A stretch of DNA of 64,000 bases from Nitrospirota bacterium (GTDB lineage: Bacteria > Nitrospirota > UBA9217). The notes beneath the pieces were generated by a model that made no database searches, had not been told where the DNA came from, and saw nothing but the letters and a program-made list of their open reading frames with translations. The stretch spans positions 192,001-256,000 of the forward strand of contig CAWIYV010000001.1 of assembly GCA_963840455.1 (NCBI GenBank). The letters are read 5' to 3'. Position 1 is the stretch's first letter. Every line of letters starts with the position of its first letter. The translations under genes and the position numbers were made by a program. Below, piece by piece: positions 56,113-60,877 of this stretch.

Positions 56113-57594
<1,482 letters not shown>

Positions 57595-57966: not shown

Positions 57967-58731
57967 TCAGAACCCCGATGCGGCGTTGAGGAAAGGGTTC
58001 TCGCGCCGTTCGTCACCAATGGTGGATTGTGGGCCGTGGCCGGAGAGGATGACTGTTTCGTCCGGAAGGGTCATAAGGTGTTCTTTGATGGACGTGATAA
58101 GCATCATGAGGTCCCCGCCCAGGAGGTCGGTCCTGCCAATGGACCCGGCGAAGAGCGCATCCCCGGTGAACACCACGCCGTCCCCAGCCAGGCAGATGCC
58201 GCCCGCCGAATGCCCCGGGGTATAAAGGACCTTGAGCGAGATATCACCCGCCTTGATGATGTCGCCGTGCTTCACGAACCGGTCGGCCTTCGGCGATGAG
58301 GGTGCGGTCATGCCGAACATCCGTGCCTGGTTCGCTGTTCCTCCCAGCAAGACACTGTCGGCCTCGTGGATGAGCAGCTCGGCGCCCGTGGCGTCCTTGA
58401 TCTGTTTGTTGGCGCCCACGTGGTCGAAATGGGCATGGGTGTTCACGATATATCTCACCTTCAGGCCCTTCCCCCTGACGAGGTGCAGGATGTCCTGGGC
58501 ATCGTCGCCCGGATCGATGACGATGGCCTCGTTGGTCTTTTCATCGTACACGATATAGCAATTCACCTGCAGCGGACCGACGACCAGTCTCGATAGTTGC
58601 ATTGGATTGTTCTTCTTTCTCTCGGAATATCGGAATGCCCCGGCCAGGATCGCCGCAGCGGTTAGCATTACCATGACAATCAGAACGACCGGTCGCCATC
58701 GAAGCCATGTTTCAGCGGCGGCATTTCGCAT
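57967..58731 (-). CDS. MBL-fold metallohydrolase (glyoxalase II-like); alternative start 58602
   Basis: THAHFDH; TPGHS; FTGD; GHG. Confidence 0.88.
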   Translation of the reverse strand: MRNAAAETWLRWRPVVLIVMVMLTAAAILAGAFRYSERKKNNPMQLSRLVVGPLQVNCYIVYDEKTNEAIVIDPGDDAQDILHLVRGKGLKVRYIVNTHAHFDHVGANKQIKDATGAELLIHEADSVLLGGTANQARMFGMTAPSSPKADRFVKHGDIIKAGDISLKVLYTPGHSAGGICLAGDGVVFTGDALFAGSIGRTDLLGGDLMMLITSIKEHLMTLPDETVILSGHGPQSTIGDERRENPFLNAASGF

Positions 58732-59239
58732 TTGCTTCCAGGTCCAACAATATTTTCTTCATCCCCCGTCCTCCGGAAAACCCGCCCAGCGTACCTGCTG
58801 AGCTGATGACCCGGTGTCACGGGATCAGGATTGGGACCGGATTCGCACCCATTGCCTGGCCAACTGCCCGGGCCGCTTTCGGTCTTCCGATCCGCTTCGC
58901 GATCCAGGCATAGCTCCGTGTTTCTCCGTACGGGATTGACGCTGCTGCCTTCCATACCGCCCGTTGGAAGGGCGTATAATAACTCAGGTCGAGCGGCAGA
59001 TCAAATGATACACGTTTGCCCGAAAAGTACTGTTGCATGAGCTTTACCGTTCTCTTGATCTCACGGTCAGTTGATCGCGACGCTGCTGCCTTCGATACTG
59101 CGACTTTCACCTTTGCCAGTGCCAGTTCGTTCTTAACGGTCTTCTGAGAACCCCGGGGAAGAACGATCCTGCATATCCCCTTCTCATAAATGCCTGCTCC
59201 GGCCCAACCGAGCGGAGTGGAAAATATCGTCTTTTTCAT
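58712..59239 (-). CDS. ogt: Methylated-DNA-protein-cysteine methyltransferase, probable selenoprotein (TGA at 58817-58819)
   Basis: IPYGETRSY, AARAVG, NPVPILIP[TGA]HRVI...LGGFSGG..MK..LLDLE. Confidence 0.9.
58773..58814 (-). promoter_or_regulatory. Bacterial SECIS-like hairpin (ogt)
   Basis: Upper stem GCUCAGC/GCUGGGC, loop AGGUAC, lower stem CCGGG/UCCGG. Confidence 0.75.
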
Positions 59240-59262
59240 TTCACGCACCTCCCGCACTCTCA

Positions 59263-59310
59263 CCTTTGTCCCTTTGTCCCCTTGTCACCGTGTCTCCCCG
59301 TCACCGCGTC
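59263..59310. repeat. Six degenerate 8-bp tandem units
   Basis: CCTTTGTC CCTTTGTC CCCTTGTC ACCGTGTC TCCCCGTC ACCGCGTC. Confidence 0.6.
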
Positions 59311-60877
59311 TGCCTTTTCGCCTCGCCATCCCCCACAGGAACCTGAGCTCCTCGCTCCGCAGAAGCCACATGGCGACGAGATAGAAGAGCACGCTCACGG
59401 TCACGCCGAAGCCGAGCCACTTGACCTTGTAGAGCGTATTGCCCGGCGAATCCCACACCGGCTTCAGGCTGACCCACCAGCCGATGGCGCCCATGATGAT
59501 GGATGCTGGCACGATCTTGAGCAGGGATATAAAGATCCTCCTTCCGTCCATGCGCCCGATCTTCTTCCGGAGCCGCTTTGTGAGCAGGCCGAGGTTCAGC
59601 ATTGCCGCGAGCGACGTTGCGAGCGCCAGGCCTCCGTGCTGCAGCGGCGTCTGGATGAAGAAGACGCTGAGCACCATGTTCGTGGCCAGGGCGAGCAGGG
59701 CGATACGGACCGGCGTCCTCGTGTCCTGGAGCGAGTAGAACGCCTGGGACACGACCCGCACCCCGGCAAAGGCCCAGAGACCGAGGGCGTAGTACAGGAG
59801 CGCGGACGCCGTGCCGATGGTGGAGAGATGGTTGAACTCGCCGTGCTGCAGCAGGAGGTTCACGATGGGGACGCGGAGCATGATGAGGCCCGCCATGGCC
59901 GGGAACATGACGAAGAAGACCAGGCGTATGCCGAGCGACAAGGTCTCGCGGAACTGCTCCATCTCCTGCCTGGCCGCCTGGGCAGACAGCGTGGGCAGCA
60001 CGGCCGTCGCGATGGCGACGCCGAAGATCCCGAGCGGAAAGTGGATGAAACGCATGCCGTAGAACAGAAAGGTGATGCTGCCCGTGGCGAGGAACGATGC
60101 CAGAATGGTGCTGACGAAGATATTGAGCTGGGTTACTGAAGAGCTGAGGAACACCGGAAGGGCCAGCGCCCCGATCTTCCGGACGCCCGGATGGCTCGGC
60201 GAGAACCGGGGTGTGAGCATCATCCCCTGCCTGTGCAGACCGGGGAGCTGGATAAGGAACTGGAAGAGCCCGCCGAGCACCACGCCGACGGCTGCGCCCA
60301 TGATGGGCTCGGGCATGTGCGGCGAGAGCAGCACCACGGAACCGATGGTCATCACGTTCAGCATCACCGGCGACAGCGCCGGGAACAGGAAGGAGCGGAG
60401 GGAGTTCAACATGCCCATGGCCAGCGCGGCCAGGCCGATGAACAGGAGGTACGGGAACATCATCCGCGTGAGCGACGCCGCCATCAGGAACTTATCGCGC
60501 TGCGTCTCGAACTTCCAGCCCCAGGCAATGATCTTCACGATGTAGGGCGCAAAGATGATGCCGAGGCCCGTGACGATGACCAGGATGACCAGGAGCCGCG
60601 CGAAGACCGCGTTGGCGAGGCGCCGCGCATCCTCCTTTGATCCCTTCGTCAATGTCTCGGTGAAGACCGGGATGAAAGCCGCGGACATGGACCCCTCGGC
60701 CAGCAGTTCGCGGAGGAGGTTCGGGATCCGGTAGGCTACATAAAAGGCGTCGGCGGCCGCGGTAGTGCCGAAGGCCCAGGACATCACCATGTCGCGGACA
60801 TACCCCATGACCCGGGAGGCGAGCGTCGCAGCGCCTACCACGCCAGCCGCCTTTGCAACTTTTATGTTCTCAGACAT
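59285..60877 (-). CDS. murJ: Lipid II flippase MurJ
   Basis: SRVMGYVRD; RIPNLLRELLAEG; FIPVF; multiple TM helices. Confidence 0.95.
   Translation of the reverse strand: MSENIKVAKAAGVVGAATLASRVMGYVRDMVMSWAFGTTAAADAFYVAYRIPNLLRELLAEGSMSAAFIPVFTETLTKGSKEDARRLANAVFARLLVILVIVTGLGIIFAPYIVKIIAWGWKFETQRDKFLMAASLTRMMFPYLLFIGLAALAMGMLNSLRSFLFPALSPVMLNVMTIGSVVLLSPHMPEPIMGAAVGVVLGGLFQFLIQLPGLHRQGMMLTPRFSPSHPGVRKIGALALPVFLSSSVTQLNIFVSTILASFLATGSITFLFYGMRFIHFPLGIFGVAIATAVLPTLSAQAARQEMEQFRETLSLGIRLVFFVMFPAMAGLIMLRVPIVNLLLQHGEFNHLSTIGTASALLYYALGLWAFAGVRVVSQAFYSLQDTRTPVRIALLALATNMVLSVFFIQTPLQHGGLALATSLAAMLNLGLLTKRLRKKIGRMDGRRIFISLLKIVPASIIMGAIGWWVSLKPVWDSPGNTLYKVKWLGFGVTVSVLFYLVAMWLLRSEELRFLWGMARRKGRRGDGETR

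Follow-up and report, generated by a model that had tools for sequence, protein, structure and literature searches.

A predicted selenocysteine form of the DNA-repair alkyltransferase Ogt/MGMT in a family of Nitrospirota

Alkyl transfer by Ogt/MGMT proteins is a suicide mechanism. A natural member of this family that carries selenocysteine (Sec) was reported by Wu et al. in 2005 from Carboxydothermus hydrogenoformans (CHY0809, ABB14497.1), and the available text of that report describes it as the sole Sec case then known in the ubiquitous MGMT family (PMC1287953). Two Sec-MGMT sequences are given in the selenoproteome of an Olavius symbiont (PMC1976440) and one in the GOS survey (PMC2398784), and Sec-MGMT appears in the accessible portions of reviews from 2022 and 2026 (PMC9312934, PMC13188914). 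A preliminary description of the locus examined herein had cautioned that Sec forms might already be reported. This caution was correct, as such forms have been in print since 2005, judging by the available text (PMC1287953). An engineered counterpart also exists. According to the accessible text of Haruna et al. (2014), the C145U form of human AGT (hAGT) protects E. coli delta-ada delta-ogt cells from MNNG, and the protein with U145 tolerates the N137A change whereas the protein with C145 does not (PMC4150793). In the titles and abstract openings of the literature on Nitrospirota selenoproteins and methyltransferases, we found no description of the Ogt of this lineage.

The gene described here lies in a 64,000-nucleotide stretch of DNA from a Nitrospirota bacterium, which we call the window. 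On the minus strand, the ORF listing gives a frame at 58817..59263 whose product ends in ...GANPVPILIP (that is, ...AVGQAMGANPVPILIP) at a TGA stop codon (58817-58819). When the region 58650-59263 is translated with TGA read as Sec (U), the ogt frame goes on as U-HRVISSAGTLGGFSGGRGMKKILLDLEANAKCRR and ends at a second TGA at 58712-58714. The resulting Sec-Ogt coding sequence (58712..59239, minus strand) has 175 codons plus this stop codon, with Sec as residue 141, and all 34 codons between the recoded TGA and the real stop are conserved. The preliminary description had given exactly this span, and its reading of an ORF that stops at NPVPILIP while the frame continues past the TGA is confirmed by the translation. 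We consider ATG 59239 (MKKTIFS...) the likely start codon, because a Shine-Dalgarno-like GGGAGG, read from the sequence at 59248..59253 (minus strand), lies 8 nt upstream of it and because the proteins of relatives start at the equivalent MKK.... Downstream on the same strand, a gene for a metallo-beta-lactamase-fold (MBL-fold) protein (57967..58731; PF00753, E 1.4e-34) begins within ogt, its start overlapping the last 20 nt.

Profile searches identify the read-through protein as Ogt/MGMT. The MGMT DNA-binding and active-site domain PF01035 is matched by residues 90-169 over profile positions 1-80 of 81 (E 5.2e-34; 116.4 bits, cut-off 27), and this match is complete only if the TGA is read through. 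The TIGR00589 “ogt” profile gives a similar result (E 5.4e-34; 116.1 bits, cut-off 46.4). The N-terminal domain PF02870 is matched weakly, by residues 50-85 and profile positions 39-71 only (21.5 bits, cut-off 21; E 3.4e-4), and in a search of solved structures the alignments of Sec-Ogt to the human and SNAP-tag chains begin at residue 1-2. The top matches among solved structures are the OGT chains 4wxc, 4wxd, and 4bhb (E 2e-31 to 5e-31), of which we take 4wxc and 4bhb to be Mycobacterium tuberculosis OGT. These are followed by E. coli Ada-C (1sfe) and human AGT (1eh6, 1qnt).

Chain 4wxc aligns with residues 65-170 of the query (E 2e-31), bringing its IPYGETRSY, AARAVG, NP, PCHRV, and LLxLE segments into register. 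The in-frame TGA (58817..58819, minus strand; U141) aligns with the Cys of PCHRV in the solved OGT chains, the alkyl-acceptor position of the PCHR motif. PUHR, its chemically analogous counterpart, replaces PCHR, and a literal alkyl-acceptor Cys is absent (the codon is TGA, not TGY). Together with the full PF01035 match across the TGA, this upholds the original proposal of an Ogt whose catalytic Cys is encoded by TGA. The name “protein-cysteine methyltransferase” has no literal fit to PUHR, and the literature still assigns Sec forms to this family. Five supporting residues are identical to those of 4wxc, namely the Asn of G-x-NP, the His after the nucleophile, the Glu of LLxLE, the Arg of ARAVG, and the Tyr of ..SY, and the same five are kept in 26 Sec and 18 Cys sequences of the taxonomic family to which the window belongs.

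Sec-Ogt has in common with the Cys-type Ogt/MGMT proteins of solved structure the IPYGETRSY, AARAVG, G-x-NP, P-[C/U]-HRV, and LLxLE motifs, and it may share their two-domain architecture. The spacings N133-U141 (8) and U141-E168 (27) equal those of N137-C145 and C145-E172 in hAGT, in the numbering used in the accessible text of the hAGT study (PMC4150793). The two kinds of protein differ in the nucleophile, which is Sec rather than Cys, and production of Sec-Ogt therefore needs SelA, SelB, SelD, tRNA-Sec, and a hairpin within the coding region. The engineered hAGT C145U is by the available account artificial, UAG-encoded, delivered by EF-Tu, and made without a SECIS (PMC4150793). The natural Sec-Ogt retains its Asn, His, and Glu partners. 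CHY0809, compared here by the accessible part of its published description, belongs to PF01035, has Sec for the active-site Cys and a stem-loop right after the UGA, and was found by Sec/Cys homology. It comes from a Firmicute rather than a member of the Nitrospirota, and it was a lone case in 2005, whereas the Sec form described here persists throughout a taxonomic family, in 28 of 46 orthologues.

The source genome (14 contigs, 4.03 Mb, rated 100% complete) encodes the machinery for Sec insertion. Genes selA (606.9 bits, cut-off 267.9) and selB (383.5 bits, cut-off 242.25) are adjacent on contig 7. Gene selD scores 359.8 bits, above its curated cut-off, and contains one in-frame TGA within ...SRTCGUAAKIGP..., so SelD is also a selenoprotein. 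Two Rfam tRNA-Sec matches exceed the gathering score (66.5 and 52.9 bits), and ARAGORN calls both as tRNA-SeC with anticodon UCA. The search of the genome for Sec genes that had been proposed with the original observation therefore returned selA, selB, a Sec-type selD, and two genes for tRNA-Sec. TGA is not a general sense codon in this genome, because selA and selB are free of internal stops and because the terminal TGA of ogt aligns with a TAA or TAG stop in a close relative (L024 versus L025 and L026). The Sec-type ogt is the sole PF01035 match in this genome, and also the sole match to the Sec-Ogt protein.

A SECIS-like hairpin is predicted within the coding sequence at 58773..58814 (minus strand) from folding and comparative data. 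Its upper stem (58780-58807, minus strand) pairs GCUCAGC with GCUGGGC and has a 3-bp extension, its apical loop AGGUAC (58791-58796, minus strand) lies 20 nt after the UGA, and its lower stem, CCGGG/UCCGG, is less conserved than the upper stem. The RNA corresponding to 58750-58822 of the minus strand folds into a two-part stem of -27.3 kcal/mol, in agreement with the two-stem hairpin with loop AGGUAC that had been noticed after the TGA. The fold energy alone is only mildly unusual. Shuffled versions of the same segment average -19.4 kcal/mol (sd 3.2; z -2.45), and an equally stable fold is reached by 4 of 200. An Rfam scan of 58650-58900 returned chance-level matches only (E at least 0.28, far below gathering scores).

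In the SECIS of E. coli fdhF, a hairpin within the coding region begins soon after the UGA and carries G residues (GGU) in its small apical loop. The Sec-Ogt hairpin resembles it in lying inside the coding sequence shortly after the UGA and in presenting GGU in a small apical loop. Unlike the fdhF element, its sequence is specific to the gene family and the lineage. A general definition of the bacterial SECIS is given in the accessible part of the 2022 review (PMC9312934).

On the comparative evidence, the predicted hairpin is not a chance structure. We aligned 18 Sec-form sequences from Nitrospirota, 17 of them distinct, and found pairing in 92.2% of cells for the 15 pairs of the model. Sliding the 3′ partner by 1-3 columns lowers this share to 27.8-58.4%. 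The seven pairs of the upper stem persist in 15-17 of the 17 distinct Sec forms. One stem pair varies among GU (9), AU (7), and GC (1). Compensatory changes on both sides were seen at 0 of the 15 pairs in this Nitrospirota set, where covariation is uninformative because the sequences are too alike, and a column-shuffle control does not separate the hairpin, since pairing as high as that observed occurs in 301 of 500 shuffles. Part of the conservation of the stem is owed to the protein, because stem and conserved codons overlap.

We therefore turned to synonymous variation to look for RNA-level constraint. We calculated synonymous diversity as the share of sequence pairs with the same residue that use different codons, with L070, L146, and two fragments from contig ends (L062 and L144) excluded. 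For 26 Sec sequences, the diversity is 0.256 at codons +1 to +13 after the TGA versus 0.511 at all other codons. For the 18 Cys sequences of the family, the corresponding values are 0.584 and 0.484. The six lowest 13-codon windows of the Sec sequences all overlap codons +1 to +13, and the minimum of the 41 windows that do not overlap these codons is 0.452. A smaller sequence set gave the same result. The hairpin is under RNA-level constraint in the Sec forms and not in the Cys forms.

Orthologues of the gene alternate between TGA and TGY at a single codon. In a first set of 41 genomes (the source genome and 40 relatives), an ogt match was present in 39, and 13 genomes of the window's family have one TGA inside the match. 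A wider draw covered 401 genomes of the phylum Nitrospirota, 382 of them with a match at E <= 1e-15. Among the matches listed, 46 have E <= 1.3e-47 and all of these fall in the window's taxonomic family (G214 and L059 are one contig). Inspection of the active-site codon in each of the 46 gave TGA in 28 and TGC or TGT in 18, which is the Cys/TGA alternation that had been suggested as a check. The single internal TGA is at the active-site position in all 28 orthologues that have one, and these cover many genera. The more distant homologues examined all have Cys. Rather than showing the frame decay that would be expected of a dead gene, the relatives conserve the sequence downstream of the TGA as strongly as that upstream, as in HRVISSAGTLGGFSGG.GMKK.LL.LE of the family alignment. 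Outside the family, the matches listed show just two internal stops, the TGA of G042 and the TAG of G368, both of which are ordinary gene-end stops.

The gene order murJ-ogt-MBL-fold is found at 20 of 20 flanked family loci (13 TGA, 7 TGY), and therefore the Sec and Cys forms are positional orthologues. At 17 of these 20 loci the fetched stretch also includes the start of guaB, giving murJ-ogt-MBL-guaB. We considered the MBL-fold neighbour as a Sec-specific partner and rejected this idea, as the gene adjoins Cys forms just as it does Sec forms. Among the first set, selA is present in 11 of the 13 TGA-bearing genomes, and the search did not recover it from the other two, G012 (96% complete) and G024 (86% complete). 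The gene is also present in all seven Cys-bearing family genomes of that set, and loss of the Sec trait therefore does not explain the Cys forms.

On a tree of 61 sequences (26 Sec, 18 family Cys, and 17 outgroup Cys, leaving out the frameshifted L070 and the N-masked L146), the Sec/Cys state requires nine changes, at least two of which are forced by well-supported branches. A Cys form from the same genus as the window (G001, codon TGT) is nested in a clade of five Sec forms with 95% support, and it keeps the hairpin as GCUCGGC-AGGUUC-GCUGGGC despite its TGT codon. This gene looks like the product of a recent Sec-to-Cys change that has left a fossil SECIS. A global protein tree (166 rows by 114 columns) requires 17 Sec/Cys changes, only one of them forced by starred branches. 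Because that tree is poorly resolved and its Cys sequences were sampled by likeness to the Nitrospirota query, we make no claim on independent origins of Sec.

We also searched for Sec-Ogt beyond the Nitrospirota with a degenerate DNA pattern for G-x-N-P-x5-P-TGA-H-R-[VI], which has one match on the window versus zero expected. In a collection of genomes from 185,579 species, the pattern has at least 120 matches. Among the matches listed, 60 of 80 loci passed a filter for MGMT hallmarks (no stop in the frame to either side, with R-x-V-G before the TGA and a G-G/F/Y motif after it), and two further loci are MGMT fragments. As a negative control, the pattern with one extra N gave 31 matches, none of which (0 of 31) is MGMT-like. 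The 60 Sec loci among the matches listed represent about nine phyla by NCBI ranks, including Planctomycetota (12), Thermodesulfobacteriota (12), Chloroflexota (11, mostly Dehalococcoidia), Nitrospirota (10), Bacillota (5), Myxococcota (3), Fusobacteriota (2), Nitrospinota (1), and Bacteroidota (1), with three loci unplaced. This suggests that Sec-MGMT is far more widespread than is apparent from the published tables considered here, which list one or two sequences.

Hairpins recur at the same place in these genes. Stem sequences vary by lineage while the position is constant, with GGGCGC-GGACG-GCGCCC in Dehalococcoidia and GCCGCCGG-GGR-CUCGGCGG at the equivalent position in Desulfobacterales. 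We required an uninterrupted stem of at least 5 bp and a loop of 3-7 nt beginning 19-29 nt from the first base of the active-site codon. Such a hairpin is present in 66 of 72 distinct Sec forms from many phyla versus 13 of 90 distinct Cys forms. The contrast is large even though the Cys sequences were chosen for their similarity to the Nitrospirota query, and it overstates independence because sequences within each group are related. Nearly all hairpin loops in this cross-phylum set contain GG. Five of the remaining six Sec forms have an interrupted stem in the same place, and no hairpin was found in the sixth, from Gillisia (Bacteroidota). The median local fold energy is -13.7 kcal/mol for the Sec forms versus -9.4 kcal/mol for the Cys forms, at GC contents of 0.66 and 0.64. 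The fold energy of the 55 nt after the UGA, assessed with mononucleotide shuffles for 60 Sec forms, has a mean z of only -0.41. Such 55-nt energies do not discriminate in this GC-rich DNA, and the position-specific hairpin definition was used instead.

Given these data, we predict, with a probability of about 0.92, that the window gene encodes a functional Ogt/MGMT whose nucleophile is selenocysteine. The gene adds an example to a selenoprotein family described since 2005 and is not a new kind of protein. A very improbable rival is that the UGA is not, or not always, decoded as Sec, and that Cys carried on tRNA(Sec) at low selenium, or near-cognate read-through, supplies the residue. In that case, the cell would rely on a conventional Cys-Ogt or on a mixed population. 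Such an outcome is made conceivable by close relatives in which Cys forms work, such as G001 of the same genus, and by the seeming ease of Sec-to-Cys exchange on the 61-sequence tree. However, the full Sec machinery, the Sec-type selD, and the constrained hairpin together are the signature of SelB-dependent insertion, and a lineage for which Cys sufficed should have fixed TGY, the codon found in 18 of the 46 relatives.

We regard it as exceedingly unlikely that the gene is a pseudogene or encodes a truncated 140-aa product, with the TGA as a nonsense mutation and the downstream frame as a remnant. Gene callers do annotate the gene in this manner. The preliminary remark that annotation pipelines would truncate it is borne out by a public protein collection, where the exact 140-aa product ending at the TGA belongs to a cluster of nine entries, all of 140 aa, and where the read-through Sec-Ogt sequence was not found. 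Against truncation, the same TGA occurs in 28 of 46 orthologues from many genera, and strong purifying selection acts on the 34 codons after it, which lead to a proper stop. Moreover, a 140-aa product would lack the active site in a genome that has no other PF01035 gene. It is almost certain that the TGA is not a misread or misassembled TGC or TGT, as 28 independently assembled family genomes have TGA at this codon. Contigs from other runs also cross the site. Two contig pieces from DNA run X3 span 58817-58819 with no change listed there (18 weaker differences are not shown), as does a 151-nt contig from the metatranscriptome library X18, which has one difference and likewise no change listed at the codon. 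These contigs argue against a local assembly error at the TGA, and the X18 contig gives a weak hint that ogt is transcribed. The pieces from X1 stop at 58819 and do not bridge the codon, and the match from X19 (RNA) covers only 59275-59318, a repeat-like stretch upstream of ogt.

If the gene indeed encodes a Sec-containing Ogt, SelB carrying Sec-tRNA(Sec) would bind the hairpin, whose first base lies about 13 nt past the UGA. This UGA, at 58817-58819, would then be decoded as Sec, allowing synthesis of the last 34 residues, which include His142, Arg143, and the Glu of LLxLE. The protein would flip out O6-alkylguanine and pass the alkyl group irreversibly to the selenolate of U141, such that each repair would use up one protein molecule and one Sec. 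We infer selenium incorporation, SelB binding, DNA-repair activity, and single turnover in this scheme from the established mechanisms of Sec insertion and of AGT and from the activity published for hAGT C145U.

An improbable extension of this scheme is that the Se-alkyl adduct is removed or resolved in the cell to give a reusable Ogt, or that the selenolate widens the range of lesions or conditions compared to the thiol form. The conditions named for a selenolate advantage are low pH and oxidative or nitrosative inactivation. If true, a reusable or wider-range Sec-Ogt would explain why the cost of Sec is borne in about nine phyla, among the matches listed, and why the genome has no other alkyltransferase. 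Within the family, however, repeated returns to Cys argue that any advantage of Sec is conditional.

Most selenoproteins are redox enzymes with many turnovers. Ogt is an odd case, in which a costly residue sits in a protein that one reaction destroys. To the description of this selenoprotein family, our analysis adds a Sec form spread family-wide within the Nitrospirota, repeated switching between Sec and Cys at one locus, evidence that the hairpin is constrained at the RNA level, and an apparently wider distribution among phyla. As a result of truncated 140-aa entries, both the repair capacity and the selenoproteome size of such genomes are under-counted. Sec-Ogt is a clean natural test of the benefit of Sec over Cys, and the Sec and Cys relatives that occupy one locus, including the TGT form that retains the hairpin, are matched pairs for biochemistry.

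The selenocysteine (Sec)-form ogt gene lies on the minus strand between murJ (59285-60877, minus strand) upstream and, downstream, a gene for a metallo-beta-lactamase-fold protein with a hydrophobic N-terminal segment (57967-58731, minus strand), followed by guaB (56113-57573, minus strand). The start of the metallo-beta-lactamase-fold gene overlaps the 3′ end of ogt by 20 nt (window 58712-58731), and the gene order murJ, ogt, metallo-beta-lactamase-fold gene is common to all 20 of the 20 family loci examined. A short, repeat-like stretch that is C/T-rich on the plus strand (window 59266-59318) takes in the murJ 3′ end together with the spacer between murJ and ogt. Contigs from several sequencing runs, including X19 from an RNA library, match the window only in this piece and are unlike it beyond, and one contig matching there carries a “goes back 36” joint.

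The genome to which the window belongs (G000) carries two tRNA-Sec genes outside the window, both with a UCA anticodon. Both exceed the gathering score of 47: the first (G000:C1:311722-311816; L014:1501-1599) reaches 66.5 bits and the second (G000:C9:389439-389529; L015:1500-1594) 52.9 bits. Some Nitrospirae have selC embedded in selB, according to a 2026 review (PMC13188914). In contrast, the selB gene of this genome contains neither tRNA-Sec gene. The selD gene, likewise outside the window (G000:C14:252661-253584; L010), has an in-frame TGA (...SRTCGUAAKIGP...), which makes the genome's own selenophosphate synthetase a selenoprotein as well. Among family relatives with a TGA-containing ogt, selA was not found in G012 (96% complete) or G024 (86% complete). 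This gap in selA probably reflects sequence missing from the two assemblies.

Loci L070 and L216 are one and the same contig of a Nitrospirota metagenome-assembled genome, in which the ogt frame is shifted upstream of the active site, such that the protein reads AFSAGGLAGRCEDPLW... and then ...SSRAARAVG. Either an indel was introduced during assembly or the gene copy is broken. The MGMT gene of Gillisia hiemivivida strain IC154 (L270), a cultured member of the Flavobacteriia, has TGA as its active-site codon. No hairpin was found 3′ of this codon by the criterion used (uninterrupted stem of at least 5 bp, loop of 3-7 nt starting 19-29 nt after the first base of the codon), and the local fold reaches just -4.6 kcal/mol. 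The gene could be a pseudogene or an atypical example, or the TGA could stem from a sequencing error.

An ogt orthologue from the same genus as the window (G001, L026:1915-1971) carries the Cys codon TGT at the active site and keeps the hairpin GCUCGGC-AGGUUC-GCUGGGC. In the tree, this orthologue nests within a clade made up of Sec forms. By sequence and placement, it looks like the product of a recent Sec-to-Cys change, with the retained hairpin resembling a fossil SECIS element.
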